Shown here: positions 11,278 through 35,419 of the stretch, in pieces
How the letters are laid out: the number at the start of each line of letters is the position of its first letter
Position numbering within the stretch: position 1 is the stretch's first letter
Source: a virus
Lineage: Duplodnaviria > Caudoviricetes
Strand: one strand, 5' to 3'
IMG/VR virus record: IMGVR_UViG_3300032275_000010
Location: 1 to 35,419 of that record
DNA length: 35,419 nucleotides
Made by a program: the position numbers and the translations under genes
Notes under the pieces: generated by a model
Told to the model about the DNA's origin: nothing
The model's database searches: none
Seen by the model: the letters and a program-made list of their open reading frames with translations, nothing else

Positions 11278-11495
11278 TCCCCATCCTCCTCGCGTTTTGC
11301 CTGAGCCTCATCACGGGCGCGCTGCTCGTAGTCAATTGGGTTTGCTACCAAAAATTTAAAATCTTTTTCGATTTTTGCAAACGTCATTTCATCATCGCCC
11401 CTATCAACACCGGAATTTACGCGATCTAGGTATGCCCGCAACATGCGGTTGTATTGCAATGTACCTGCTGATTTCCAACTATCTGTATTTGCCAT
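11274..11495 (-). CDS. Hypothetical protein
   Basis: AGGAG RBS before ATG at 11495, downstream of a sigma70-like promoter. Confidence 0.65.
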   Translation of the reverse strand: MANTDSWKSAGTLQYNRMLRAYLDRVNSGVDRGDDEMTFAKIEKDFKFLVANPIDYEQRARDEAQAKREEDGE

Positions 11496-11543
11496 GTTCG
11501 CTGCTCCTGTTTTCGGTTCGCGCCAATCGCTAACCATGAATAC

Positions 11544-11572
11544 AGTCTAGCCTGTTATTTAATTATCGTCAA
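11544..11572 (-). promoter_or_regulatory. Sigma70-like promoter
   Basis: TTGACG-17 bp-TAGACT on the minus strand. Confidence 0.7.
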
Positions 11573-11607
11573 TACCTAAATCAAAATATATTTTCATCGA
11601 AATACGG

Positions 11608-11674
11608 GCATAACCAGTCAATCCAGCGGGACTAGCCGATAAAGCTTGGCTAGATGGTTAACTTTACGTTAGGG
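11608..11674 (+). mobile_element. attC-like site A1
   Basis: GCATAAC ... CTAGCC/GGCTAG stem ... TTAACTTTAC-GTTAGGG. L-box pairing is imperfect. Confidence 0.7.
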
Positions 11675-11871
11675 CGCAAGTATGCAGTACACCGGATAAT
11701 CACTTGCCCTTCCGTAGTTGTGCCGATCACGGGCATTGTTTCAAACTCCATGTGGCTGCAATTTGCGTTTACCCATATACATGTCGCGCACATCCCGCCT
11801 TTCGGTTGATAGCATTCGCGCTCTAACTTTACATTCAAGCGGAGCGCGTTTAACGTGGTTCCTTCAGTCAT
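11650..11871 (-). CDS. Cassette-borne Cys-rich hypothetical protein
   Basis: GAGG RBS and ATG lie inside attC A2. Contains 'YQPKGGMCATC'. Ends PNVKLTI inside A1. Confidence 0.75.
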   Translation of the reverse strand: MTEGTTLNALRLNVKLERECYQPKGGMCATCIWVNANCSHMEFETMPVIGTTTEGQVIIRCTAYLRPNVKLTI

Positions 11872-11907
11872 AATTTTTCCTCGCGCCCGCTTAATTCCAC
11901 GTTAGTC
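11821..11907 (+). mobile_element. attC-like site A2
   Basis: CTCTAAC-tttac-ATTCAAGCGGAGCGCG ... CGCGCCCGCTTAAT-tccac-GTTAGTC, with the extrahelical TT(C)AA/TTAA asymmetry of aadA-type attC. Confidence 0.85.
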
Positions 11908-12054
11908 CCTGCCATCTGATTCTTCTGTAAAATGTTTTCCATCATGCCAGTAAACATTAATTGTTACCCTTGCTCTCATGTTCTTTGCAATCCATTCGAC
12001 AAAATATGAAATTAAATTTTCCAAGCTTGGTGGTGGTATAAAAAGTTTTGACAT
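11902..12054 (-). CDS. Cassette-borne 50-aa protein (not in ORF track)
   Basis: AAGGAG RBS. MSKLFIPPPSLENLISYFVEWIAKNMRARVTINVYWHDGKHFTEESDGRD, with the TAA stop inside the GTTA core of A2. Confidence 0.7.
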   Translation of the reverse strand: MSKLFIPPPSLENLISYFVEWIAKNMRARVTINVYWHDGKHFTEESDGRD

Positions 12055-12078
12055 TCAGCTATCTCCTTTATCATTCCG

Positions 12079-12141
12079 AGCTAACCCGGCGTTCAACCAG
12101 ACCGCCCAACAGCGGGGCGGCTGGTTAACTCTACGTTAGAG
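12079..12141 (+). mobile_element. attC-like site A3
   Basis: AGCTAAC-ccggc-GTTCAACCAGACCGCCC-aacagcg-GGGCGGCTGGTTAAC-tctac-GTTAGAG, a textbook 63-bp attC layout. Confidence 0.9.
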
Positions 12142-12147
12142 CGCATG

Positions 12148-12363
12148 TTAAACTTTTGTATTGTCCATTGCCCTTATAACGCAGGAACGTATAGCCTGCT
12201 TTGCAATGTCTTTGCCCTGGCTGAATACCAAATCAAGCGCATTGCTCAACATGTGGTAATCAGCGAAGCATTGAAGTCGAATAGAAAAATCCATCCCTTC
12301 AATCTTAAATTTAGCAATTCCATTTTCATTTTCTATATTGCCTATCCATTCGCTTCGGTACAT
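12148..12363 (-). CDS. Cassette-borne hypothetical protein
   Basis: GGAGAG RBS before ATG at 12363. Lies between A3 and A4. Confidence 0.65.
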   Translation of the reverse strand: MYRSEWIGNIENENGIAKFKIEGMDFSIRLQCFADYHMLSNALDLVFSQGKDIAKQAIRSCVIRAMDNTKV

Positions 12364-12386
12364 AGTCTCTCCGTTGTAAAGTTGCG

Positions 12387-12436
12387 CTTTAACCCATCGG
12401 TGAAGCGGGAGCCGCAAAAGCGCGGCCCTTAATTTA
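12387..12436 (+). mobile_element. Truncated attC-like site A4
   Basis: CTTTAAC-ccatc-GGTGAAGCGGGAGCCGC-aaaagc-GCGGCCCTTAA. Resembles B3 but lacks the final GTT. Confidence 0.65.
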
Positions 12437-12760
12437 CTTCTGCTTCGCTGCCATCAGTTTACGGTAGCAAGTCCATCTGTGCCCGTATCCATTGTCTAGC
12501 ATCCACACCATTAAACGCATCTGGTCTATCGGATTTTTCCATCGAAGCCGCGGCATTTTTGCCAGTACTTTCATTTCATTAAATGTTGCTTTTTGAAACT
12601 GAGCAATTCCCACACTGATACCGCCTGGCCCATCTGCATCATCGCCAACTGCGTTATATCTACCACCAGATTCACATTCGATAATATCAACCATCAGGCT
12701 TGCATCCATTGCTTGCGCGTCAAAACAAAATAACGTACAACAGATGATTAATATTCGCAT
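12434..12760 (-). CDS. Lytic transglycosylase/SLT-like protein with signal peptide
   Basis: 'IIECESGG' catalytic Glu motif, 'GIAQF', C-terminal 'WTC', and a hydrophobic N-terminus ending AQA. Confidence 0.75.
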   Translation of the reverse strand: MRILIICCTLFCFDAQAMDASLMVDIIECESGGRYNAVGDDADGPGGISVGIAQFQKATFNEMKVLAKMPRLRWKNPIDQMRLMVWMLDNGYGHRWTCYRKLMAAKQK

Positions 12761-12773
12761 GTCGTCCCCTTGT

Positions 12774-13130
12774 TTATTCAGCGCCAACAATCCGCTGCTT
12801 TATGTAACTTTTATTTGTGCGGATATTATCAATTTCTTTTATTGTGTGGATGCAACTTTTTGGCACTGATTTTAAAATAAATTGCATGTGTTGCAGCATC
12901 TCCAAGTCACGCTCAACATATAACCCTAATCCTGCCTTGTTAATTTTTATCTTCTTGATTTTTTCTTTGCGGGCATATTCGCTTGATATTTTTTGCGCGT
13001 ACCCTTTCGATATATTGTATTTTTCTGCCAACTGAGCTGAGGTCATGCCGCGTTTTGAATCCGCAATTATTTTAATATTACGCTCGGATAGCGGGCGACC
13101 ATTCTGGTTTCCTGTCTTTTGATAACTCAT
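12774..13130 (-). CDS. HTH DNA-binding protein
   Basis: 'ERNIKII...GMTSAQLAEKYNISKGYAQKI'. Confidence 0.65.
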   Translation of the reverse strand: MSYQKTGNQNGRPLSERNIKIIADSKRGMTSAQLAEKYNISKGYAQKISSEYARKEKIKKIKINKAGLGLYVERDLEMLQHMQFILKSVPKSCIHTIKEIDNIRTNKSYIKQRIVGAE

Positions 13131-13891
13131 AATTTTCCCCTACCTGATTCCCAATCAAAAACAATGCACTTTCCACCATCTTCACGCAGCCTATCAAATA
13201 TCCGATCGCCAAGTATAGGCCTAATTTCATCAGCTGAAAAATTTGATAACAGCAGACACGGCAAGCGTTTTTCGTAACGCTCATTTAATACATCAAACAA
13301 TAGATTGCGCTCAAATTCAGTGCCGAATTGCACCCCGATTTCGTCCAGTATCAGCAGATCAGGACTGACCAGCAGTCGGATTACATCGCTTTCCGACTCG
13401 ACAGAATCCTTGGCCCACGAATCCTTGATACGCCGGATCGCACGCTGGGCAGTAATGAACAGAGCCAACTTGCCAGTTTTCATAATTTCGATTGCGATGC
13501 CATTCGCCATGTGAGTTTTGCCGGTGCCAGGCTTGCCACAGAATATCGCGCTGCGCCCAGTTTTGAGCACTTCATCAAACTGTGCTACATACGTCCTGCA
13601 GAACGATAGGGCGCGCTTCTGCCCGTCATTGTCGGCGCGATAGGTATCCAGTGTCCGGCCTGCGAAACGTTCAGGGATCGCAGCCATGCACAGCTTGCGC
13701 CGCCATTCTGCACCGCGCTTAATTACTTCTTGCCGAAGCTGGGCAGCAATATCTGCTTTTTTCTGCTCGCTTGAGCATACTGGACACTTAGACCAGACAT
13801 TCGCAAATAAATTATGACTTGTAAATATGCCATGTGCAATGCAAGAATTTTGTCTATCTGCTTTACGACTAAATAATGGTTGCATGATCAC
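13127..13891 (-). CDS. DnaC/IstB-like AAA+ helicase loader
   Basis: N-terminal 'CIAHG...CPVC', Walker A GKPGTGKT, Walker B LLILDEIG, 'LGDRIFDRLRE' and 'FDWES'. Confidence 0.92.
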   Translation of the reverse strand: MIMQPLFSRKADRQNSCIAHGIFTSHNLFANVWSKCPVCSSEQKKADIAAQLRQEVIKRGAEWRRKLCMAAIPERFAGRTLDTYRADNDGQKRALSFCRTYVAQFDEVLKTGRSAIFCGKPGTGKTHMANGIAIEIMKTGKLALFITAQRAIRRIKDSWAKDSVESESDVIRLLVSPDLLILDEIGVQFGTEFERNLLFDVLNERYEKRLPCLLLSNFSADEIRPILGDRIFDRLREDGGKCIVFDWESGRGKL

Positions 13892-14094
13892 TCCAGATTA
13901 TGTTTAACCACGAGCTTGAGCAGGCTTACGACCAGGCTATATGCACAGTCCGGAGCATTGCCTGATGACAATCGGCTGATGGTTGATTGTGTTACCCCTA
14001 CTTTATGCGCGATGTAGGCTTGTGAATAGCCTGCCTTACTCAGCTTACCGATTAGTAAACGCGGGTGAATCGGAACTACTTTAATAATTGTCAT
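13888..14094 (-). CDS. Cro-like XRE HTH regulator
   Basis: 'SQAYIAHKVGVTQSTISRL'. AGGAGG RBS before ATG at 14094. First gene of the leftward early operon. Confidence 0.8.
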   Translation of the reverse strand: MTIIKVVPIHPRLLIGKLSKAGYSQAYIAHKVGVTQSTISRLSSGNAPDCAYSLVVSLLKLVVKHNLE

Positions 14095-14119
14095 TGCTAA
14101 ACCTCCTGAAAGTAGCTGC

Positions 14120-14148
14120 ACTATAAACATGTTTTTTATGCAATGCAA
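14120..14148 (-). promoter_or_regulatory. Leftward sigma70-like early promoter
   Basis: TTGCAT-17 bp-TATAGT on the minus strand. Confidence 0.6.
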
Positions 14149-14158
14149 CATATTTATG

Positions 14159-14192
14159 TTGACAGCGCATAATGCGGGGACGCATAATGCGG
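14159..14192 (+). promoter_or_regulatory. Rightward sigma70-like early promoter with two operator-like repeats
   Basis: TTGACA-18 bp-CATAAT. CGCATAATGCGG (palindromic CGCAT-A-ATGCG) occurs at 14166 and 14181. Confidence 0.7.
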
Positions 14193-14255
14193 CTGCAATA
14201 ACGCAACACACTGATCCGCGCTAATTAAACGCCACGTAATCAAAGGAGCAATAAA

Positions 14256-14495
14256 ATGAAAAACTATATGACAGAAGTTGCAATAATTGAAAATGCTACC
14301 GTGTACGAGGAAAAGATTTTTGATAACGGTAGCCGTTATGAATACCGTTATTTCGGGAAGGATGCAGACCTCGTGGGCAAGCGTGCTTTACGAGCAAAAG
14401 AAAAGATTGACCCGTATCGCTCTCCCAGCCTATCACCTGTTACACCGTTCCTCGACGGTTATTCATGTATTTTAAAATTTTACGGATTGGACTAG
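14256..14495 (+). CDS. Hypothetical early protein
   Basis: AAGGAG RBS, first ORF after the rightward promoter. Confidence 0.7.
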   Translation: MKNYMTEVAIIENATVYEEKIFDNGSRYEYRYFGKDADLVGKRALRAKEKIDPYRSPSLSPVTPFLDGYSCILKFYGLD

Positions 14496-14498
14496 GCT

Positions 14499-14864
14499 AT
14501 GACAAAATTCGAACTTGCAAAAAAGTCAGCAGAATTCGCCTCAATGCTTGACGATGAAAAAAATACTTTGCAGCCATTGGACAAATCAATTGCGCAATGG
14601 TTGGTAAATCAAATCCATTTTTTTGCAGAAAATATTGCCGGTAATCGTTCAAACGAAATTTATTGTCCCGATGATACGCAGACTGCGATTACTGAAATTG
14701 CAATGCTTGAGCAGTACTTGGAGATGTTGAAAAAAACAACACAATCATTTCTGGAATGGCAGCATAAATTTGAAACTGAAATGATTAATCCATTATTGGC
14801 TAAGTGCGCGGTACTAATGGCCGGACAGTGTACATGCAGCGATATTGACGAGGTGAAGAAATGA
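14499..14864 (+). CDS. Hypothetical protein
   Basis: In operon, ATGA overlap with the next gene. Confidence 0.65.
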   Translation: MTKFELAKKSAEFASMLDDEKNTLQPLDKSIAQWLVNQIHFFAENIAGNRSNEIYCPDDTQTAITEIAMLEQYLEMLKKTTQSFLEWQHKFETEMINPLLAKCAVLMAGQCTCSDIDEVKK

Positions 14865-15790
14865 AAATAGGAATCTTCAGTATCCCGTCAGAGCAGTATC
14901 ATGCTGACGATCTGGGCGATGTGCCGACGCTCTCATGCAGCCTATCTAAAATTCTGCTAAATAACACGCCATCGCATGCAATGATGGCGCACCCCCGGCT
15001 TAATGCTGCTTACAAGCCCAAAGAATCGGGCCGGTTTGACATCGGCACCGCCGCGCATGCTGCGCTGCTGGAGGGACTAGACATCATAACCGTATGCGAC
15101 TTTCCAGACTGGCGCACAAAAGCCGCACAGGCCGCAAGGGATGATGCCTATGCGCTGGGAAAAACACCGCTATTGCCTGACCAGTATCAGCAAGTTCAGG
15201 ATATGTGTACATCGGCCAAGCTGGCAATTACGCGCTGCGCTGATCTGAGTAGGTTGCAGCTATCGCAGGGAAAACCTGAGCAGACTATATTGTGGATCGA
15301 CCCAACCGGTGCACATTGCCGCGCTCGGACTGACTGGCTGCACGACGATCGATCATTGATCATTGATTACAAAACTACGGACATTAAAAACCCTGTGGCC
15401 TGGATGCGTGCGATACCCGGCAATGGCTACGATGTGCAGGCAGCATTTTACAAGCGCGGGGTTAAAGCCGTGACTGGCAATGATCCTGACTTTGTGTTTT
15501 TCGTGCAGGAAACAGACGCGCCGTATAATTGCTATTTCGTCGGCATGCCGCCCGTCTATCTCGAAATCGGGGAATTAAAAGTGCAGGCCGCAATGACAAA
15601 GTGGGTGGAATGTCTGCGCACAAATACATGGCCCGGTTATCCCTCGCGCATTATGTACCCTGACCCTGCATCCTGGGTGATGGCAGAGGCTGAAGAACTA
15701 GCGGCAGAAATGGAAAGTGGGCTTATGTTGTACGATCCGCATGCGCCAGGTGCGAAGGAAAATTTCCTATTCGGAAAAGTATCAGATTAA
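14861..15790 (+). CDS. RecE/exonuclease VIII-like PD-(D/E)XK nuclease
   Basis: 'IGTAAHAALLE', 'CRARTDWL', 'IIDYKTT' and 'YDVQAAFY'. Confidence 0.88.
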   Translation: MKIGIFSIPSEQYHADDLGDVPTLSCSLSKILLNNTPSHAMMAHPRLNAAYKPKESGRFDIGTAAHAALLEGLDIITVCDFPDWRTKAAQAARDDAYALGKTPLLPDQYQQVQDMCTSAKLAITRCADLSRLQLSQGKPEQTILWIDPTGAHCRARTDWLHDDRSLIIDYKTTDIKNPVAWMRAIPGNGYDVQAAFYKRGVKAVTGNDPDFVFFVQETDAPYNCYFVGMPPVYLEIGELKVQAAMTKWVECLRTNTWPGYPSRIMYPDPASWVMAEAEELAAEMESGLMLYDPHAPGAKENFLFGKVSD

Positions 15791-15808
15791 TTTTTTAACC
15801 CAAGGAGC

Positions 15809-16873
15809 ATGAAAATGACACAAGAATTGACTCTCCCTGAACGCGCAGCACTTGCGCTTAAAGGAAACGATGCAGAATTGATTGAACTTGCAAAAAAATC
15901 ATCTGACATTAAGTCCATCGAAAATAATGCTGGCTATCAGCAAGCGCAGTCATGCCGGATGGTGCTGCGTAATACTCGCACGAACCTGGAAAAACGCGGC
16001 AAAGAAGCCCGCGAAGATGCGCAATTATTTTCAAAGGCAATTATAGCCGAAGAAAAAAGACTGATCGACCTGATCCGTCCAGAGGAGGTACGGCTCGACT
16101 CTATTCAGGCCGCATGGGATTCAAAAATTGAAGCTGAAAAGCAGGCCAAAATCGATGCTGAAAATAATCGCAAAGCAGCGCTTGAAGAGCGCATAATTGC
16201 GCTGGATGCGAATCTGCAATTTGGTGATGATTCAAAAATTATTCAGCGCAAGATTGACCACATATCGCAAATCGATGTTGATGCCAGCTTCCAGGAGCGC
16301 CGCGAAGAAGCTGCAGAAAAGCAAAAAAATTCACTGGCAGAACTTCGCGCCGCGCTCGAAACTGTGACTGAACAGGAAGAAGTCCATGCAATGCGTGAAG
16401 CCGCACGGGTTAAGGCAGAGCAAGAGGCAGCGGAGCAACGCGCTGTTGCAGAGAAAGCGGCACGCGAAACCGCCAGAATCCAGGCTGAAGCGAATGCAGA
16501 AAAAGAAAAGCAACTTGCACTACAACGCGCTGCCGAAGAAGAAAAGGCGCAGGCACAGCGCAAAATTGAACAGGAACAACAAGCGGCAGAGCGCGCTGCC
16601 AGGGTAAAGGCGGAACAGGAAGCGGCTGCATTACGGGCTGAATTAAGCGCGGCAGCAGCACGCGCCAATGCAGAAAAAGCCGCGGTCCTCGAACAAGAAC
16701 GCCGCGCCGCTGCCGCCCCTGACAAGGAACGCATGCTGACTTATGCGGATTCATTGCTTGCGCTCACCGTCCCGGCAATGTCTACGCCGGCAGGCCATGA
16801 GGCTGCTCTCGGCATTGAGCAGGCAGTATTGAGCCTGCATAAACGCATCGTAGCAAAGGCAGGGGAACTATGA
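15809..16873 (+). CDS. Coiled-coil protein of the recombination module
   Basis: Ala/Glu/Lys/Gln-rich helical protein between the RecE-like and Sak4-like genes. Confidence 0.7.
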   Translation: MKMTQELTLPERAALALKGNDAELIELAKKSSDIKSIENNAGYQQAQSCRMVLRNTRTNLEKRGKEAREDAQLFSKAIIAEEKRLIDLIRPEEVRLDSIQAAWDSKIEAEKQAKIDAENNRKAALEERIIALDANLQFGDDSKIIQRKIDHISQIDVDASFQERREEAAEKQKNSLAELRAALETVTEQEEVHAMREAARVKAEQEAAEQRAVAEKAARETARIQAEANAEKEKQLALQRAAEEEKAQAQRKIEQEQQAAERAARVKAEQEAAALRAELSAAAARANAEKAAVLEQERRAAAAPDKERMLTYADSLLALTVPAMSTPAGHEAALGIEQAVLSLHKRIVAKAGEL

Positions 16874-17832
16874 GCTTCATATTCAGAAAAGCCGAACGTG
16901 AAAACGTGGCGCTGCTGATCGGCCTGGTTGGTGGCACCGGATCGGGAAAAACATTCACCGCGATGCGGCTGGCCAGCGGAATATGCGGAGATCGTCCTTT
17001 CGCGGTGATCGATACCGAGGCGGGTAGGGCCAAGCATTATGCCGACCAGTTCAATTTTGATCATGGCGACCTTGCGCCGCCATTCAGGCCGGAAGCCTAC
17101 ACCGAAGCAATCCACGCAGCCGACAAGGCCGGTTATCCGGTAATCGTGGTGGACAGCACATCGCTGGTCTGGGCAGGCGATGGTGGAGTGCTGGATTGGC
17201 AGGAAGAGGAGCTTAACCGCATGGCAGGCGACGACTGGAAAAAGCGCGAAGCTGTTAAGATGGCCGCGTGGATCAAGCCCAAGATGGCCCATAAAAAAAT
17301 GGTGCAATCGCTGCTCCAGGTGCGCGCCCACTTGATCCTGTGCTTTCGCGCAGAGCAAAAAGTGGAAATGACCCGCGACCCTGAAACAAAAAAGATGATC
17401 ATCCAAGCGAAACAATCACTGACCGGGCTGGATGGATGGATTCCCGTGTGTGATAAATCCCTTCCTTTTGAACTTACGACCAGCCTGCTATTCACCGCTG
17501 ACGCGCCAGGCATCCCGAAGCCAATCAAGTTACAGGAACAACATCGCGCGCTATTCCCGCTAAATCAGCAGGTAAACGAGGATTCAGGCCGGCGGATCGC
17601 TGAATGGGCAAAGGGCGGAGCCAAGAAAGTACCAAATATAGCACCGGCTGAGTGCATCACCGTGGATCAGGTCATTTTCCTGACCGACTCCCTGGCTGAA
17701 AAGGGCGTAGCAAAAGAACGTTTACTGGCTGCCGCTGGCAAAGCACTAGGCCACGAAGTCAGCACGCTTGCTACCTTACCCTCTGAATTTTACGACAAGG
17801 CTAAAATGTGGATAGAAAGGGCTGCGACATGA
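16870..17832 (+). CDS. Sak4-like / AAA_24 P-loop ATPase (putative recombinase)
   Basis: Walker A GGTGSGKT, 'VIDTE', 'VIVVDS' and 'HLILCFRAEQK'. Confidence 0.85.
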   Translation: MSFIFRKAERENVALLIGLVGGTGSGKTFTAMRLASGICGDRPFAVIDTEAGRAKHYADQFNFDHGDLAPPFRPEAYTEAIHAADKAGYPVIVVDSTSLVWAGDGGVLDWQEEELNRMAGDDWKKREAVKMAAWIKPKMAHKKMVQSLLQVRAHLILCFRAEQKVEMTRDPETKKMIIQAKQSLTGLDGWIPVCDKSLPFELTTSLLFTADAPGIPKPIKLQEQHRALFPLNQQVNEDSGRRIAEWAKGGAKKVPNIAPAECITVDQVIFLTDSLAEKGVAKERLLAAAGKALGHEVSTLATLPSEFYDKAKMWIERAAT

Positions 17833-17912
17833 GAACTGATCCGTTTATTTATTTCTGCTGGGGCTGCATTTTTGTGGTTGTTGTGGCCTGTGCGCTGGTA
17901 GCGATACTTTGA
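17829..17912 (+). CDS. 27-aa putative membrane peptide (not in ORF track)
   Basis: MRTDPFIYFCWGCIFVVVVACALVAIL, ATGA overlap with the ATPase stop. Confidence 0.45.
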   Translation: MRTDPFIYFCWGCIFVVVVACALVAIL

Positions 17913-17938
17913 TGATCAAGACCTAAATGGAGATAACC

Positions 17939-18142
17939 ATGAAGTATGAATATAGAACCGGAGTGCCGATTGAAGATTGCCCATTTTGCGCTAACTCATG
18001 GGGGCCACCACAACCAGAACAAGCGCCTGATAATGGCCGCTGGCACGTCGGATGCATGAACCCGCATTGCGGAGCGAGCAGCGGATTTTGCGATTCCGAA
18101 AACGAGGCAATTGAACATTGGAACAAACGGCCTAACGTGTAG
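17939..18142 (+). CDS. Lar-family restriction-alleviation-like zinc-ribbon protein
   Basis: 'CPFC...CMNPHCGA...EAIEHWNKR' and GGAG RBS. Ends PNV inside attC B1. Confidence 0.75.
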   Translation: MKYEYRTGVPIEDCPFCANSWGPPQPEQAPDNGRWHVGCMNPHCGASSGFCDSENEAIEHWNKRPNV

Positions 18143-18209
18143 ATAAGAGGCGCACCGATTAGCAGCAACACCCCGACGATATTACGTCTGGTTGATGTAA
18201 CTGTTAGGC
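18130..18209 (-). mobile_element. attC-like site B1
   Basis: Minus strand GCCTAAC-agttac-ATCAA ... TTAT-ctacac-GTTAGGC. The inner stem is weak. Confidence 0.72.
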
Positions 18210-18230
18210 AAATTACGAAAAGGTAGGTAT

Positions 18231-18437
18231 ATGAAAGTGTGGATTCTGACAAGCGAATACAACGACTACGACCAGCATGGTGAGGTCTTTGAAGGGGTAT
18301 TTGCAAAAAAACCAACGTCTGCGCAAATACAAAAGTTCTGTGGAATAACCGAGAGCGGCGCAGATCATGTACTAGCAGGTGGGGGCAGACAGAGACACGA
18401 GGATAGCTGGTACATCTTAAAAGAATACGATGCCTAA
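18231..18437 (+). CDS. Cassette-borne hypothetical protein
   Basis: AGGTAGG RBS. The stop TAA is part of the GCCTAAC of B2. Confidence 0.75.
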   Translation: MKVWILTSEYNDYDQHGEVFEGVFAKKPTSAQIQKFCGITESGADHVLAGGGRQRHEDSWYILKEYDA

Positions 18438-18554
18438 CGTTAAATTAAAGGGCTGCCCCATAAAAGAAAAGATAACAGAGAAATGAAACCTGATGACGAA
18501 TTGAATAAAACAAAAGACGCAGAGGGGCAGTCACACTTGAATGGTGGGTTGGGT
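18432..18554 (-). mobile_element. attC-like site B2, loop carries RBS and ATG
   Basis: Minus strand ACCCAAC-ccacc-ATTCAAGTGTGACTGCCCC ... GGGGCAGCCCTTTAAT-ttaac-GTTAGGC. Confidence 0.82.
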
Positions 18555-18668
18555 ATCACTTCATGCAAAACTTGCAAAGATAAATCTTGCCATAGCAAGT
18601 ATTTTTATGAGCGTTTCATGGCTATACCGTTTTGCGGCGCCCACACAGACTATGAGCCTAGAGCATGA
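18483..18668 (+). CDS. Cassette-borne Cys-rich small protein
   Basis: Starts inside the B2 loop, with leader 'EGQSHLNGGLG'. Confidence 0.65.
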   Translation: MKPDDELNKTKDAEGQSHLNGGLGITSCKTCKDKSCHSKYFYERFMAIPFCGAHTDYEPRA

Positions 18669-18669
18669 T

Positions 18670-18734
18670 ACCCAACGTAGAGGTAAGGGGCTGACGCGCT
18701 TCTGCGGCAGTCCCGCTTCACCGCCGGGTTTGGC
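18670..18734 (-). mobile_element. attC-like site B3
   Basis: Minus strand GCCAAAC-ccggc-GGTGAAGCGGGACTGCCGC-agaagc-GCGTCAGCCCCTTACC-tctac-GTTGGGT, 65 bp. Confidence 0.87.
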
Positions 18735-18748
18735 AATGAAAGGATGAT

Positions 18749-19090
18749 ATGAGCTTATTTCAGTGTGATAACTGCGGGTGTGCAGAGAATACAGCACTCG
18801 CGGCGCAAAGCGTACCAGAAGTATTTGCACAGTTTTACGACTGGGAAGGAATTGAAGAAAAAAAGGCCATGAGACTGTGCAGCGCATGTGGGCCGGAGAA
18901 ATATTATGATGGTACGCCGACTGAATATGGTAAATGGCACGGGCGATTTGCGCGAACATTTTTACCTCTCGGGATGTTTAAAACAGCGAGAAATGGAAAC
19001 CTTGAACATAAGGAAACCGGCGAACAGGATTATCATAAATATGCAGTGCCCAACGATAAATTAAGGGGCTGCCCCATAGAGAAAGGATAA
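18749..19090 (+). CDS. Cassette-borne hypothetical protein with two CxxC pairs
   Basis: 'MSLFQCDNCGCAENTAL...LCSACGP...GKWHGRF'. The C-terminus reads into B4. Confidence 0.8.
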   Translation: MSLFQCDNCGCAENTALAAQSVPEVFAQFYDWEGIEEKKAMRLCSACGPEKYYDGTPTEYGKWHGRFARTFLPLGMFKTARNGNLEHKETGEQDYHKYAVPNDKLRGCPIEKG

Positions 19091-19169
19091 CAGAGAAATG
19101 AATAATCAGACTGAAGTGAATGACAAAAAACACGTAGAGGGGCAGTCCCGCTTGAATGTAGGGTTGGAT
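19048..19169 (-). mobile_element. attC-like site B4 (paralog of B2), loop carries RBS and ATG
   Basis: Plus strand GCCCAAC-gataa-ATTAAGGGGCTGCCCC ... GGGGCAGTCCCGCTTGAAT-gtagg-GTTGGAT. Confidence 0.85.
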
Positions 19170-19451
19170 GCCATAGCATACATGATTTATTTATCGACGT
19201 GGACAAATGAAAATGAGTCTATAGAGAATTTCGATGATGCACTGTTACAGAAACTTTATGCTAAATGGATAGATAACTGGCTACCTGCAAAACATGAAGC
19301 ACATTGCGGCGATTGCATCGGAATAGCAGCATCATGCTTGCGTTGCAACGTAGAGCAAATATACACGGATGCGGAGAGAATAATCAAGGCGTCCAACGTA
19401 GAGTTAACCAGCTTGCCATTAACTGAAGGAGAAAATAGCAATGACAAATGA
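19098..19451 (+). CDS. Cassette-borne hypothetical protein
   Basis: Starts in the B4 loop (leader EGQSRLNVGLD), contains 'HCGDC...SCLRC', and ends inside B5. Confidence 0.75.
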   Translation: MNNQTEVNDKKHVEGQSRLNVGLDAIAYMIYLSTWTNENESIENFDDALLQKLYAKWIDNWLPAKHEAHCGDCIGIAASCLRCNVEQIYTDAERIIKASNVELTSLPLTEGENSNDK

Positions 19452-19521
19452 AACGATAGCAGCACCACAACAAACTAGCAAGCCAGCAGATGGCGAGTCC
19501 GAGTTGAACGCAAGGTTAGAA
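19391..19521 (-). mobile_element. attC-like site B5, loop carries RBS and ATG
   Basis: Plus strand GTCCAAC-gtaga-GTTAACCAGCTTGCCAT ... ATGGCGAGTCCGAGTTGAAC-gcaag-GTTAGAA. Confidence 0.83.
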
Positions 19522-19761
19522 CTCGAACTTTCAGCCCTCAATATGGCTGTGGATGTTTTCGCCGCACACATGAAGGTGAAGCTCGCAGAAAAAGCAGCTG
19601 CAGGTTGGTCAGGATGGAATGTCAACGGGTACTCATCAATAATTGCGTCCCGATTACTACATAAAGCGAACCTTGTAGAGTATGACCGGAAGCAGGCTGT
19701 CGATGTGGCAAACTTAGCCATGATGCTGTGGTATAAATCAGAGAGTTCTAACGTAGAATAG
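19441..19761 (+). CDS. Cassette-borne phage protein (possible all-alpha NTP-pyrophosphatase-like fold)
   Basis: AAGGAG RBS in the B5 loop. 'FAAHMKVKLAEK...GWSGW...VDVANLAMMLW' motif. The fold call is tentative. Confidence 0.7.
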   Translation: MTNETIAAPQQTSKPADGESELNARLELELSALNMAVDVFAAHMKVKLAEKAAAGWSGWNVNGYSSIIASRLLHKANLVEYDRKQAVDVANLAMMLWYKSESSNVE

Positions 19762-19765
19762 ACGA
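19746..19765 (-). mobile_element. attC/attI-like half site B6
   Basis: TTCTAACGTAGAATAG matches the arm of the other sites, but no partner arm is visible. Confidence 0.55.
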
Positions 19766-19782
19766 CATAAATTTCTTATAAT

Positions 19783-20307
19783 CTACCAGCGATACGACAA
19801 TGAGCCTCCGATGATACTTGTTGAGTCAGTAGCAATACTGGCTGTTACTCCTAGATTAAAGCCTTTTACCTGAGCAAGTTCCCATGAACCTTGAAGGATA
19901 CCTATTCTTTCAGTTCCTTTTAGCCCATAGATAATTTTAACCTCTTTGGTATTTCTTGCTGCAAAAAATGGGTATGGCTCAATTCGCTGCAGTGTAGTGA
20001 AAGCATTAGTATTAAGGTCAAGTGTTGTCGTTACCGTAATTGGCCGTTCGCTGGGTTGAATACTCCGTGAAGATACCACTACCACGGATTTATTAGCGAT
20101 AATCTCAGCCGGCAACTGTAATTTTTCTTTGGCCTCTGGTTTGAATATCCGTATCTTGGCTTGGATAACCTCAGTAGGAACCATTTTAAGCTCTTTGGAT
20201 TGCTTTGGTTCAGTCCATTGACCAACAGGTGCGGGTGATGGCTTAAAGTACCACCATGAGCCTGCTATGATGGCTAGAATAAGTATCTCAGCTATGGTGC
20301 GGTTCAT
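19783..20307 (-). CDS. Lysis-module membrane protein (spanin-position)
   Basis: N-terminal TM helix, last gene of the lysis cluster, C-terminal amphipathic beta strands ending in W. Confidence 0.55.
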   Translation of the reverse strand: MNRTIAEILILAIIAGSWWYFKPSPAPVGQWTEPKQSKELKMVPTEVIQAKIRIFKPEAKEKLQLPAEIIANKSVVVVSSRSIQPSERPITVTTTLDLNTNAFTTLQRIEPYPFFAARNTKEVKIIYGLKGTERIGILQGSWELAQVKGFNLGVTASIATDSTSIIGGSLSYRW

Positions 20308-25088: not shown

Positions 25089-25470
25089 GAACCGATTTTT
25101 TTACTTTTGGCTTGTCGGCTTCCCGGTCAAGTAATTCGCGCAGCAACTTTGCACCCTCTTTTTCAGCCGCTTTTACTTCGTCATCAAGCAAGCGCTCTTC
25201 ACCGGTCTTTACCCCTGGCGGCGCTCTGCCCATTTCTGTCTGTGCTTTAAGGTATACCGCCTGAGTGATCAGCGTCACCATACGCCCGAGAACAGAGAGG
25301 GTAGACAGCGCAACCTTGCGGCACCATACCGCATCTCCTCGGTCTTCCTGTGTTAAGTCCATCGGCAAAACGCCATGCCCAACCCAGTTTTTAGGATCAG
25401 CATCAGACAAGGCAACCTCTGCCAGTTTTTCACTGAGTTCGTTTAATCGTTTCAGTTGATCAGGAGTCAT
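25075..25470 (-). CDS. Putative terminase small subunit
   Basis: 131-aa helical protein overlapping the terL start. Positional inference. Confidence 0.6.
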   Translation of the reverse strand: MTPDQLKRLNELSEKLAEVALSDADPKNWVGHGVLPMDLTQEDRGDAVWCRKVALSTLSVLGRMVTLITQAVYLKAQTEMGRAPPGVKTGEERLLDDEVKAAEKEGAKLLRELLDREADKPKVKKSVHGNP

Positions 25471-28400
25471 TTTTCAATCCTTTTCATAATTTCATCAGCA
25501 ATTCGCTGCATTTCAGTTGCCCGTTGCTCTGGTGGTATTGCCTGCACAGTGGCAACTTCCTGCGCCTTGTGAAACACTTTTTCATAAACCTGTTTTTTTA
25601 CCATGTCTGGCATATTGTCCCAAGCCGGTTGATTGACAATTGGCACCAGTATTTCATGCGCCATCTGGCCGGATAGTATGGTGAAGTCATGTTGCTGTTG
25701 TTGAGTCAATTCAACCTTGCCTATATCCTTTTGACCCATCGCAGACAATTCGATTTTCTTCGGTGCCAGCGCAGATGCTACGCCTAGCCTAGCAGCCTCA
25801 GTACGCACCTTGTCTGTACTGATCGTTGTTTCAGTTACAGGAGATACAATTCCAAGCCGTTCTTTGCTTTGTATTGGTTCACCGAACATATCAAGTTTTG
25901 GTAAGAGGTCGCCACGCAGTCCAGGAATTCTTGCCTCAACTGCTTGGCGCACGCTATCGACTTCACGGGTGAAAGGATCAAGCATCGCAGTCGGTTGCGC
26001 GACAATATTCGGCACGGTTGACCCGGCGAAAGATTGAATCAGGCGTGGCCCGAAGCGTGAGGGATCAGACATTGCATTCATAACGTTGGTAATACCCTGT
26101 AAAAATGTTTGACTCGTAATCGCATTGGCAAAAGCTACAGACAACATTTTCGGCACCCTATCCGATTCGCTATCATTCATGTGCTCCCAAACCTCGGCAA
26201 TATCTGAAGCCATCCCCATCAGTGTCCCAATAGGCTGCAAGCGCTGGTAGTTGTACCATGTATCACCGATTTTTATAGAGTACGGCTGCCAGCCAGCAGC
26301 AAGCTGAGCTCTGCGCTTTGCCGGATCAGGATCACCGGCACCGCTGATATGTCCATCCAGTGCGAAAGCGAACACGGTAGACATAATTGCAGAACCAACC
26401 AGAACTTCAGCCATTGCACGGTCAGCTTCAATACCACCAGATGCAAGAGCCGTGCGCCATTCTTTGACTGCTGGCGCAAATGGTGTCAACCTAATCAGTT
26501 CTTTTGCAATGTTACCCGGTGTCCTGATAAACGGCACCATAAATTCAAGATGAAATTCCTTAACCAGTTTTTGCACAGCCTGGCCTTTGGGGCCTAAATC
26601 CATGTTAAATGTGTATCGTTTCCCAGCCGTGTCGATTGCTTGCTGCATTTCGGTTGGCGGGTTCTGCATTATATCCACAACCCTTTCTTTGAATTCCCTT
26701 GTTCTAATATCTATGCCTTCGATTATCGCTTGCCGTGTTGCTAGTGAATAGGCTTCGCTTCGTTCGTTTATAGTTTTGAATAATGCATCTTCAGCACCTA
26801 GCGCACGGAATGGAAGCCGGATAATTTGACCCTTTTCCCCATCAATTGCATGGCGGAATGATTCAGATTTACCCTGCTCTTGCAAAGCATCTTCATTGGC
26901 TATCATTGCCGCCGCAATCTTTGCGCCGTCCTTGGCCCCCTCAATCATGCCTGTAATACGAGCTAGCGGCTCATGGATTGAAATACGTTCTTCAACGGGT
27001 GCACCACGCAGCTTGCCGATTGCTGCAGCAACTGTATCTATCGGCAAACGCATAGTAGCAAAAGTACCATTACCCATTAGGTTGGCGACATGGGTAACTG
27101 GACCAGATAGAATTCCAGCCTTCCACCCTTCTACCAGCTTTTCCCAAGTGGTTGCCTTTGATGCTTCAGCTGCAAATTTTGCCATGCCTTCTTTGGTGCC
27201 AATCTCCCCAATCATGCGTGCAAGTTCTTGCGGATCATGGCCGTATTGCGCAAATAGGCTTTGCGTATTCTTCGCAATATCACTCATTTGCTTCGCAGCT
27301 TTTCGGGCATTTAAGGCGCGCGCAATCTCGGCCCCATTACCCTGGTCAATCGCTTGCAGAAATGCAAGGCTTTCGATTGCCACAACTAGCGCCCTGTCAT
27401 CTTCGGGTGTTGCCTCTGCGGCTTTAGCGCGGACATTACGGGCAGCCTCCGCCACATCAAAAGCGGCTTTCTGCGCCATTGCCTCCCAAGCCATCGCCTT
27501 CCCAGCAAGATTTTCAAAGTCTCCCCCGCCAGCCTTCAGCCCTGAATTCTTTATGATATCCATCGCCTTCGCTTGCGTAGCGTCCCATGATTCCTTGCCG
27601 CGTAATTCAGCAATTTGCTTTTCAAACACCTGAGAAATACGGGCATGGATAGCCTTCACATCTTCGGGACTATCAACATATTTGTAATTGATATGGTTCG
27701 GGGCTTTTTCAGAAGTGATCTGCCCGAGTGATTGATTCTCAATCACCTGATTAACATTCAATTCGCGGTCAGTCCCGAAAAGGACATTTTCTATCATCCT
27801 CTCACGTGCTGCGGGGATATAGGCGCGGGGTATTCCAGTGTCGATTGATTCTCTGATCAGCGGGTCTACTGCTTCGGCCGGCTTTGCTTGCGCTTTGTCA
27901 AATTCCTTTCTTGCTGCATAATCTACTCTTCGATTATCAGTTATATCTGGGTTCTTTGGATCAAATAATCCGCTGTTGTCTGTAGCGGATTTTATTTGCG
28001 ATGATGAAAATACAACCCATGCCTCTGATTCTTCAGAGAAATTGCCATCTGGGAAGTGCACGCTGTCAAACCCTTTTTTTTGCGCGTACTTTACAATATC
28101 AATGTTATTATCGAAATCAAGCGCTTCCCCATTAGCAAACGGCTTTAGCTTGTTATTGCGATAGTCAAATGTTACTGTCAACGGGTTTTTTGAATTAAGA
28201 TAGACCTTGTAAATCTCGCCATCCTGACTTTTTGCATAGCTATTAGCATATTCAATGCTGCGCGTAAACCATGCCCCAGGTTCATCTCTGCCTGGGGTTA
28301 TTTCAGTGAGTCCTGCTGTCATGCTGCCGTGGTACATAACCAGCGGATTACCCTCTGCATCTACTACCTTACTATCACCAAACCAGCTCTTAAATTCTGG

Positions 28401-30062
28401 CGTGTCAATTTGTTTTATTGTCTCCGGTCTTGCAGCTCCGGTCGCATCAGGTATTCCACCAGGTAATTTTGCTGCTGCTCCGATGTCATTCCCTGCATTT
28501 CCTGTGTCCGCTTTTCCGCCAGTCGTTGCAGCATCAACTCTGTCGAACCTGAGGCCGCGAGCTTTTCTGTCGGCTTTATCTGTGTACTGATTCGCTTCTG
28601 CTGACTTAAAGTCTTTTCCTGTCCCATAGCTGAACCCTACGCCTTTCTTGTGAACCTGATTCCCGTTTTTATCGGTATAGTAAAACCCTTCCTCCATGAA
28701 TCTATCACGGGCGATATTCATTACTTTATTGGCATCTGCTTCTGTATGAAACTGAGCCTTGAATTCGTCGCCTGATATGTGGTAGACCTCTTGAGTTACG
28801 TTTTCAATCTGTTTCGCCATTGCTTTAATAGCAGCATCACCTGCATCATGACCGAGTGTGTCATTTAAGGTTTTCAGTCCATCAATGTCAGCGAATACCT
28901 TAACCGGCAATTCTTGAGCAACGTCAAGCGCTGCTTTATTTGGTATCCCTGTTAATGCACTGGTATAGTGCCTGCGGTCATGAGCAATTAATTCCTGAAG
29001 TCTTTCATCAGGAGACATGCTTTCATAGCGGGTACGGCGTTCTGTTTCTGTGCTACGTCGATTCTGGAAAAGCAAATCATTTTTTATTGTTGGATCAGCC
29101 ATTGCATCAGCTGCAACCTTACCCGGTTCGATACCTGTTTTCTCCATTATAGTACTAAGTTTACCGGTCAAAGCCTCTGTATCCTTACCCTCTCCTATGG
29201 CTATTGCGGCATTTGTAATATCCTTTGTCTTTGCCATGCCCGGATTACCACGCGGCCCTATGACACCTATACCAGCCGCAAATACACCATTCAGAAGCAT
29301 ATCCTCGAAAGAGTACTGCGAGCGCATGTCTACGGGCATGTTTGAATTCATATATTCCCTGGATAATTCGCCCATTGCAATGCCTGATGCAAAGCTCGTA
29401 CCGACACGCGTCGCCATGCTGCCGCCGATATTAAGCGGAAGAATTATATTTGCGGTAGTTGAAAGATATGATGCTTTTGCTGCATTGAATGCAGCCATTC
29501 CATCATTGGTATGATCGTAAACTTTCTGTCCAACATCTATTGCGCTGGCAAGTGCAGGCGCAGCAGCAGCACCAGTTCCATGTCGGATCATCTCAGCAAT
29601 AGCGGGCCACATTTCATTTGCAGCCATAACCGAACCAGTTGCTTTGGCTGGTGCAGACAGATACATTTCTGCGACCTGCCCCGCCATATTTCCAATAGTG
29701 TGAGAAACCTTGCCAATAATCCCCGCATCAGGGCGAATCTCAGAGCGTGAGATTGCAGCATCAAGAGGTGCGACTGTGTAATCAAAATATTTTGTTGTCA
29801 GATCAGTGCCGAAAGCGTGATCAAATAATCTAGGAAGTATAGAACCGGCCAGCGCTGGAGCCTTCCAAAATGTACCAGCTGCCTTGTTTAGACCGCGCAT
29901 TGTGTCTGGAAACATTTTCGCCAGATCATTTACAATATGAGATTCATTATCATTTATTATCGGCTTTGCTGTGGATAAGTCAAAGCCTGTATTTTGTGCC
30001 TCTGTTGGCTGCAGGGCTGTATTTTCTGCAATAGGTTGTGCTGTTGCCAAGTCAAACGCCAT
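25467..30062 (-). CDS. Large internal virion/ejection polyvalent protein with GGDEF-like, ART-like and LPD38-like regions
   Basis: 1531 aa in the gp16 position, with N-terminal FDLxTAxPI repeats. 'LTGIPNK...FADIDGLKTLNDTLGHDAGD...SGDEF', and 'FKSWFGDSKVVD..GNPLVMYHGS...WFT...ESE...QIKS'. Confidence 0.85.
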   Translation of the reverse strand: MAFDLATAQPIAENTALQPTEAQNTGFDLSTAKPIINDNESHIVNDLAKMFPDTMRGLNKAAGTFWKAPALAGSILPRLFDHAFGTDLTTKYFDYTVAPLDAAISRSEIRPDAGIIGKVSHTIGNMAGQVAEMYLSAPAKATGSVMAANEMWPAIAEMIRHGTGAAAAPALASAIDVGQKVYDHTNDGMAAFNAAKASYLSTTANIILPLNIGGSMATRVGTSFASGIAMGELSREYMNSNMPVDMRSQYSFEDMLLNGVFAAGIGVIGPRGNPGMAKTKDITNAAIAIGEGKDTEALTGKLSTIMEKTGIEPGKVAADAMADPTIKNDLLFQNRRSTETERRTRYESMSPDERLQELIAHDRRHYTSALTGIPNKAALDVAQELPVKVFADIDGLKTLNDTLGHDAGDAAIKAMAKQIENVTQEVYHISGDEFKAQFHTEADANKVMNIARDRFMEEGFYYTDKNGNQVHKKGVGFSYGTGKDFKSAEANQYTDKADRKARGLRFDRVDAATTGGKADTGNAGNDIGAAAKLPGGIPDATGAARPETIKQIDTPEFKSWFGDSKVVDAEGNPLVMYHGSMTAGLTEITPGRDEPGAWFTRSIEYANSYAKSQDGEIYKVYLNSKNPLTVTFDYRNNKLKPFANGEALDFDNNIDIVKYAQKKGFDSVHFPDGNFSEESEAWVVFSSSQIKSATDNSGLFDPKNPDITDNRRVDYAARKEFDKAQAKPAEAVDPLIRESIDTGIPRAYIPAARERMIENVLFGTDRELNVNQVIENQSLGQITSEKAPNHINYKYVDSPEDVKAIHARISQVFEKQIAELRGKESWDATQAKAMDIIKNSGLKAGGGDFENLAGKAMAWEAMAQKAAFDVAEAARNVRAKAAEATPEDDRALVVAIESLAFLQAIDQGNGAEIARALNARKAAKQMSDIAKNTQSLFAQYGHDPQELARMIGEIGTKEGMAKFAAEASKATTWEKLVEGWKAGILSGPVTHVANLMGNGTFATMRLPIDTVAAAIGKLRGAPVEERISIHEPLARITGMIEGAKDGAKIAAAMIANEDALQEQGKSESFRHAIDGEKGQIIRLPFRALGAEDALFKTINERSEAYSLATRQAIIEGIDIRTREFKERVVDIMQNPPTEMQQAIDTAGKRYTFNMDLGPKGQAVQKLVKEFHLEFMVPFIRTPGNIAKELIRLTPFAPAVKEWRTALASGGIEADRAMAEVLVGSAIMSTVFAFALDGHISGAGDPDPAKRRAQLAAGWQPYSIKIGDTWYNYQRLQPIGTLMGMASDIAEVWEHMNDSESDRVPKMLSVAFANAITSQTFLQGITNVMNAMSDPSRFGPRLIQSFAGSTVPNIVAQPTAMLDPFTREVDSVRQAVEARIPGLRGDLLPKLDMFGEPIQSKERLGIVSPVTETTISTDKVRTEAARLGVASALAPKKIELSAMGQKDIGKVELTQQQQHDFTILSGQMAHEILVPIVNQPAWDNMPDMVKKQVYEKVFHKAQEVATVQAIPPEQRATEMQRIADEIMKRIEK

Positions 30063-35303: not shown

Positions 35304-35419
35304 GGTACCACCTTAAAAAAAAGCCCAGCGTGATAATGCGCCGGGCTGAAATCGGCTTTCACCGAGGGGACTGCAAAAAATTAATTCTCGACGTAATCAA
35401 CCTCGACGCGAACGTCCTG
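35293..35419. repeat. Terminal direct repeat (copy 2)
   Basis: Identical to 1-127. Confidence 0.93.

Follow-up and report, generated by a model that had tools for sequence, protein, structure and literature searches.

Array B of this phage genome consists of five integron-type cassettes that carry small genes. The model we propose, to which we give a probability of roughly 0.7, is that these are reversed cassettes, read on the bottom strand of their attC sites and ending in a likely attI, in a phage that has no integrase of its own; insertion and excision of the units at AA|C are likely the work of a host integrase (IntI), and their transcription likely starts from an early phage promoter. 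We regard the phage array as a new variant of the integron, in which the genes are reversed, each of them lying on the strand opposite to that used by normal bacterial cassettes. This reversed layout dominates the phage arrays (68 units to 0) as well as the viral loci that bear IntI (48 to 1).

Organisation of the two arrays

The whole stretch of DNA analysed, hereafter the window, has 35,419 nucleotides and is a complete phage genome (IMGVR_UViG_3300032275_000010; 35.4 kb, DTR class, 100% complete) with a 127-base terminal repeat, in which profile matches identify the virion genes: capsid, head-tail connector, terminase and T7-like tail. Array B forms the 3' end of a rightward operon comprising an exonuclease VIII-like gene, an AAA ATPase gene, a Lar-like gene and the five small genes. 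This early operon is headed by a sigma-70-like promoter, TTGACA-18-CATAAT, at 14159..14188 on the + strand, the best of 14 consensus matches in 11300-20000 (11/12 bases), the total of such matches in that interval being equal to chance. Lying at the far end from attI, this predicted early promoter would replace Pc for the expression of the cassettes. A search for Pc found no sigma-70-like match in 19400-20000, where it would in any case be antisense to the genes, and a search of sequencing runs yielded no RNA dataset among those listed. The left border of the array is the Lar-like gene (17927..18142, +; Lar in Pfam and PHROG), in whose 3' end the AAC of the first site is contained; the contigs of two sequencing runs (X1 and X5) match the window up to 18136-18137 and then continue into a different site.

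The sites and genes of array B are all given on the + strand. B1 (18130..18209; AAC at 18134, GTT at 18203) is a degenerate attC read on the bottom strand, which has an attC-type left arm and scores 17.3 bits with CM R1 (E 0.054); it precedes C1 (18231..18437, 68 aa, phrog_6933; cassette unit 18136-18437). B2 (18432..18554), of the long type with 123 nt, holds in its loop the start codon at 18483 and is absent from the CM matches listed; C2, which begins inside it (18483..18668, 61 aa; unit 18438-18675), has no family match in Pfam or PHROG. A contig joint skipping 18454-18670 was considered as a deletion and rejected: one of its sides has 21 bases, and it probably comes from the repeats. B3 (18670..18734), a short attC of 65 nt, reaches 66.7 bits with the CM, but belongs to its training set. 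C3 (18749..19090, 113 aa, phrog_11861; unit 18676-19053) runs on across the left arm of B4 (19048..19169), a long site of 122 nt with AAGGA and the ATG at 19098 in its loop, which encodes about 22 N-terminal residues of C4 (19098..19451, 117 aa; unit 19054-19396). B5 (19391..19521; long type, 131 nt, with GGAG and the ATG at 19441 in the loop) is absent from the CM matches listed and folds solely as a circle junction. It encodes about 25 N-terminal residues of C5 (19441..19761, 106 aa; unit 19397-19751), whose match to phrog_8298 begins at residue 29. The PHROG families of C1, C3 and C5 are of unknown function.

B1-B5, as well as A2-A4 of the second array, have R and L boxes with AAC...GTT, an unpaired central spacer and a variable terminal loop. 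The extrahelical bases, G and T, by which the recombinogenic bottom strand of an attC is recognised are on the 3' side of the hairpin when the coding strand is read; G is found in B1, B2, B4 and B5, and C in B3. The loop of the long sites would hold the ribosome-binding site and the start codon and would supply the N-terminus of the protein, its C-terminal tail being given by the next site; among 19 long viral sites, 13 have a loop start whose reading frame continues beyond GTT. C3 (19080-19104) and C4 (19430-19451) traverse the left arm of the next site and stop at or just past the ribosome site of the next gene, and these stop positions suggest a translational coupling built into the long sites. 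The folding of the sites within the array is weak (z from -2.1 to +1.3), and long loops are reported to lower recombination under replicative conditions (PMC8946536). An Rfam search of the window gave no match to an attC model, and neither circles nor exact cassette deletions of this phage were found in the contigs, as distinct from reads, that were examined.

Array A lies on the - strand in a leftward early region (11608-12443) and has the same reversed layout, with three full sites, one truncated site and three small genes. A1 (12387..12443), truncated and without the AAC arm (15.2 bits with the CM, E 0.17), is followed by a gene of 71 aa that has no PHROG match (12148..12363); A2 (12079..12141), which belongs to the CM training set, by a gene of 50 aa (11902..12054) whose ends pair poorly (3/7); and A3 (11821..11907; 87 nt, 43 bits), with a start codon in its loop, by a gene of 73 aa that starts inside it (11650..11871). 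Pairing across the ORFs is the same as in array B in two of these three units. No closing AAC or attI was found after the last site, A4 (11608..11674, 23.7 bits); the promoter-like stretch found there resembles one that follows a site in another locus (L173).

The definition of a CALIN requires two or more attC sites in the absence of an integron integrase (PMC9024848). The window has 5 + 3-4 sites and no IntI. Indeed, Pfam detects no tyrosine recombinase among the 51 ORFs of the complete genome, a six-frame search of the genome with PF00589 gives no match, and tblastn of the whole genome with three IntI query proteins gives a best E of 0.25. The intI that a complete integron has beside its array is absent from this complete genome. 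Array B is by definition a CALIN, with a probable attI, and not a complete integron, and it breaks the canonical polarity rule.

Unit-specific ends and the attC family

An earlier note on this sequence had read the units as integron-type cassettes bearing a footprint of recombination in their unit-specific inverted ends, a view that is supported by the pairing of these ends and by the recurrence of the C3 cargo elsewhere. The five GTT and five AAC ends on which it was built each occur once, at the positions given for them, and direct comparison returns the same pair counts across the successive ORFs (8/8, 11/11, 9/11, 9/10 and 10/10). With GTT/AAC left out, the variable positions 4-10 match at 30/35 across the ORFs versus 18/35 within the sites. 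The note had asked for a permutation of the ends: among the 720 assignments of five GTT to six AAC ends (mean 17.2), the true one alone reaches 30, and at lengths of 7, 12 and 16 the assignments that do as well number 4/720, 2/720 and 1/720. The ends of B2-B5 do pair worse within a site, as had been claimed (2/4 within, 3-4/4 across the ORF); for B1, omitted from that claim, the two pairings are equally good at length 7. When the 8 closed units of arrays A and B are taken together, 45/56 positions match, a value reached by 2 of 40,320 permutations. Furthermore, pairing across the ORF beats pairing within the site in 80/91 viral units, 6 of which are those of the window, and in 116/129 bacterial units. 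R' and R'' are complementary within one cassette over 7 to 11 bases, 9-11 paired bases at cassette ends being usual (PMC2727003), and the complementarity of the ends is in itself ordinary integron biology and not surprising.

The array sites are ordinary attC sites. Their relatives were sought in IMG/VR with a gapped pattern drawn from the window sites, about half of the 54 matches viewed being true; a 15-base exact pattern was rejected as a site finder, its matches being mostly due to chance (about 5/73 true). A related form of the gapped pattern is present at 129 loci of bacterial genomes, mostly those of Gallionellaceae, Nitrosomonadales and kin; the 80 that have flanks were analysed, and IntI adjoins the array in many of them. 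One integrase from bacteria and four from viruses were tested, and all five score above the TIGR02249 cut-off. In an alignment of 41 sites, both partners vary in 11 of the 17 pairs and 94.5% of the cells pair, a covariation that is partly circular because these sites were chosen as hairpins. The best bacterial matches, 0.88 for B3 (L292) and 0.95 for A2 (L240), both belong to Gallionella MAGs. The CM built on the phage coding strand also makes seven matches in two class 1 integrons, all opposite to the cassette genes, and its top match, at 74 bits, is the attC of blaOXA-198 (NZ_MG958650, NZ_MN699848). The position of the sites between small genes in an operon would suit hairpins of an ordinary kind (terminators or processing sites, for instance) or a chance resemblance, but this explanation is refuted by the matches to annotated integrons: the sites belong to one family with the attC sites that adjoin intI in bacterial genomes and with those of class 1 integrons, and no site was called in six shuffles of the window.

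Strand and position of the crossover

The complementarity across an ORF is identical whichever end is cut, so that pairing does not tell the side of the crossover. The earlier note had placed the crossover at G|TT of the + strand and had proposed to fold the bottom strand of the circularised cassettes. The circles do fold, but both crossover models fold equally well (R-box pairing at the circle junction of 0.80-0.99 for AA|C and of 0.86-0.98 for G|TT), and the bottom strand to be folded is the + strand. As for the G|TT position, it does not hold: the cut is placed at AA|C of the + strand, which on the - strand reads G|TT, by the strand asymmetry, the attI-like end and the breakpoints of the homologues. 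With the cut at its left end, a site goes with the gene that follows it.

The strand is indicated by the class 1 matches, which are antisense to the genes, and by the published bottom strand of attC-aadA7, which reads like the array sites; it follows that the phage coding strand corresponds to the attC bottom strand. A test for a ribosome site and a start codon assigned 68 of 91 viral units (6 of the window included) to the bottom strand, none to the top strand, 2 to both and 21 to neither, the corresponding figures for 129 bacterial units (2 plasmid units included) being 8, 32, 1 and 88. The longest-ORF test gave, in the same order, 29, 3, 49 and 10 for the viral units and 2, 88, 22 and 17 for the bacterial ones. 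The 66 units of the IntI-bearing viral loci, in an analysis from which two minus-strand matches of 124 were left out, are distributed as 48, 1, 1 and 16. Cassettes are held to enter in the single orientation that lets Pc express them (PMC2727003). All eight cargo genes of the window lie on the bottom strand and after their site, and depart from the canonical rule of a gene followed by attC and oriented for Pc.

The homologues of the cargo show where the units break. Ten metagenome loci (the L431 family) carry a C3-family cassette with about 60% identity to C3, in which the upstream site and leader agree at 61-65 of 65 positions; the 30 bases to the left of AAC form 6 distinct sequences and those to the right of the closing AAC form 4, and since the ten loci may come from related samples it is the number of distinct neighbours that counts. 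Flanks were viewed for 29 of the 56 loci from the metagenome scan, L422, which is the window itself, not being counted. The earlier note had proposed a search for the same cassettes beside different neighbours in other phages, and the C3 cargo does recur with other neighbours, with 92-98% protein identity and the same closing AAC (L423, L424, L426); changed neighbours are found for the C3 family and, at the protein level, for C4 and C5. Two homologues differ from C5 and C4 in their tails: P0002 keeps the site-encoded N-terminal leader of C5, which P0004 lacks, and P0007 keeps the site-encoded N-terminus of C4 with another C-terminal tail. The closest copies of C3 do not keep B3, L423 having another upstream body and L424 an attI-like site instead; B4- and B5-like bodies occur on other cargo too (L424, P0005), so that site and gene are not always linked. 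In L424 (~1950-2300) the attI-like site is directly followed by the C3 gene and further cassettes, a layout that suggests two arrays in tandem.

These data bear on two other explanations. Canonical cassettes, in which a gene is followed by its own attC and the crossover falls at G|TT of the + strand, would fit the cross-ORF complementarity and the folding of the circles equally well; L424 shares part of the downstream arm, and one published phage array, TJE1, has the canonical polarity, as we verified. Against this explanation, the bases left unpaired are on the 3' side of the hairpin in the coding strand, the attI-like site closes the array on its 3' side, the upstream site contains in-frame start codons and the homologues keep that site. 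It is largely refuted by the strand matches and the C3-family breakpoints, and we judge it very improbable. On the other hand, IntI could have made the cassettes once, their present shuffling being due to homologous recombination between look-alike sites, promoted by exonuclease VIII and the neighbouring ATPase. An exonuclease VIII-like gene (14861) and an AAA_24 ATPase gene (16870) are at hand, the upstream body is swapped in L423, and in L424 the downstream left arm is shared over 17 bases, after which the sequence diverges. We hold this to be quite unlikely: the breakpoints of the ten-locus family fall at AAC, with a left identity of 6-12/30 in the eight loci that differ from L431, crossovers inside the bodies would yield chimaeric bodies more often, and the ends have stayed specific to their unit in 80/91 units.

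The attI-like end, source of the integrase and origin of the cargo

The right end of array B is likely an attI, judging from its position and from a profile. This attI-like site (19746..19768, +), a putative insertion point, has no hairpin; its AAC at 19750 is followed by GTAGAATAGAC, and bacterial integrons have a stretch resembling GTAGAATAGAC after their closing AAC and upstream of intI. The attI-minus-attC score is +8.6 at 19750 versus -7 to -21 for B1-B5, no bacterial attC arm out of 37 scores above zero, and a score as high as that of 19750 is obtained at 2 of 1040 AAC positions, 19750 included. The raw attI score of 14.1 does not beat the best scores of whole-window shuffles (11.5-16.4), and the profile is made of 9-10 sequences, one of nine training sites failing leave-one-out, with a match that covers the 5' part of the bacterial attI alone. 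At least seven other phage arrays end in an attI-like manner (L048, L091, L190, L195, L215, L220, L221). At 19768, immediately past the attI-like core, the sequences of related backbones join that of the window.

In the model proposed here, a cassette would be composed of C + site body + GTT + gene + RYYYAA. The cassette circle would fold on the coding strand, and IntI would cut between A and C and join the unit to attI at 19751|19752; insertion at this point would make C5 the newest cassette and C1 the oldest. The integrase would be provided in trans by a betaproteobacterial host (Gallionellaceae/Nitrosomonadales-like, an assignment made from site likeness alone) or by a co-infecting phage with intI. 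IntI is present in one of 23 array-bearing viral records and in none of the five near-complete ones. Chromosomal integrons that have intI, near ABC-transporter, RecG and methyltransferase genes, hold bottom-strand cassettes of the phage type beside canonical ones: a DUF5131 gene behind a long site (L240 1357-2866), an RNA ligase gene (L268 178-912) and a DUF7167 gene (L257 5374-5568). The presence of these cassettes suggests that the host IntI handles such units and serves the phage in trans. A terminase was not found in five MAGs, which are incomplete genomes and uninformative in this respect. One viral contig (L195 4194-8324) bears a complete integron with five sites, methyltransferase-like cargo, an attI-like site and an IntI codirectional with the cassette genes.

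A reversed array could also be a relic, built by an intI of the phage itself located to the right of attI, as in L195, and since lost, so that the array now only decays. A search with a phage IntI found 66 other viral loci with an IntI relative, 39 of which have their sites on the same strand as intI. Both B1 and A1 are degenerate, no closing site was found for array A, and the backbone junction at 19768 falls after the attI-like core. We nevertheless find such a loss unlikely, as 22 of the 23 array-bearing records, including the five near-complete ones, are without IntI and several keep an attI near the bacterial consensus, copies of the same cargo with high identity lie beside different neighbours, and reversed cassettes are present in host integrons. 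An integrase acting in trans is the reading that we retain.

With regard to the origin of the cargo, C1 is a plain phage gene without sites in all six viral loci of its homologues. The earlier note would have taken it as a refutation if homologues were never bounded at these cores, as seemed to be the case in viral_contigs, where 0/30 homologues of C1 and C3 have sites, until bounded metagenome copies overturned this impression. C3 occurs as a cassette with at least three unrelated upstream sites (window, L423, L437, L431 family), and its gene is the sole blastn match to cultured phages. The simple reading of these sequences would be that phage genes such as C1 and C3 gained sites. Both being also plain genes, and C3 having at least three unrelated upstream sites, the repeated birth of cassettes could be traced in sequence. 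An all-against-all comparison of 220 units revealed no viral cargo shared at the DNA level, and the PHROG match rate does not separate viral (16/73) from bacterial cargo (10/70, sampled from 103). As a tentative extension, which we hold to be possible but doubtful, phages might build cassettes from ordinary genes by placing attC in front of them and share the integrase of the host; the resulting mirror-image pool would be expressed in phage early operons and, being antisense to Pc and thus silent in host integrons, would be kept there as a depot for later phages.

The phage arrays have counterparts in the literature. Qi, Rajabal, Ghaly, Tetu and Gillings (2023) reported 17 phage CALINs and the recombination of phage sites by IntI1 as bottom strands (PMC9892861). 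Like the window, these CALINs are attC clusters without integrase and with small cargo, and DNA methyltransferases occur in related arrays; the text consulted does not mention the gene-to-site polarity or attI in lytic phages, and its figures and Dryad files may show the polarity. The CM makes four matches on the ORF strand of PH101 (L481 / NC_029094, 75900-78000), reversed as in the window, and two of them correspond to the bottom strands of the published PH101_attC1 and attC2, sites recombined by IntI1 (PMC9892861); these PH101 sites are detected weakly, at 18-28 bits. MW202573 (L480, 2069-3738) has five matches on the ORF strand and is also reversed. No description of reversed phage cassettes was found in the literature searched, the coverage of which was thin for subscription papers.

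The sedentary chromosomal integrons of Gallionellaceae/Nitrosomonadales (GTDB, L224-L303) share with the window the attC family and the cross-ORF pairing; their attI core is similar to the attI-like core of the window, and the intI-attI-attC geometry is the same where intI is present. Unlike those of the window, the genes of the Gallionellaceae integrons are mostly on the top strand (88 versus 2 by longest ORF); the median cassette has 453 nt in bacteria versus 269 nt in viruses, and sites of at least 100 nt are rare in the former (4/279) compared with the latter (19/127). Class 1 integrons (IntI1, attI1) have the same bottom-strand architecture as the window, but there the gene lies before its attC and is expressed from a Pc located at attI, whereas in the window the gene lies behind its site and is transcribed toward the attI-like end.

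Phage arrays of opposite polarity that keep a likely attI and have no integrase imply that phages use a gene-shuffling enzyme of the host for their accessory genes and that units are exchanged with chromosomal integrons. How cassettes are first made has been called largely unknown (PMC5371416), and genes that exist both with and without sites offer a handle on cassette genesis.

Two further features were noticed outside the arrays. On the - strand inside the terminal repeat, at 23-80 and 35315-35372, Rfam gives a weak similarity to a betaproteobacterial toxic sRNA, at 29.5 bits, which does not reach the gathering score; the element is probably a terminator. Lastly, the virion gene block contains a polyvalent-type protein of 1531 aa (25467-30062, -) that combines GGDEF-like and ART-PolyVal ADP-ribosyltransferase domains.
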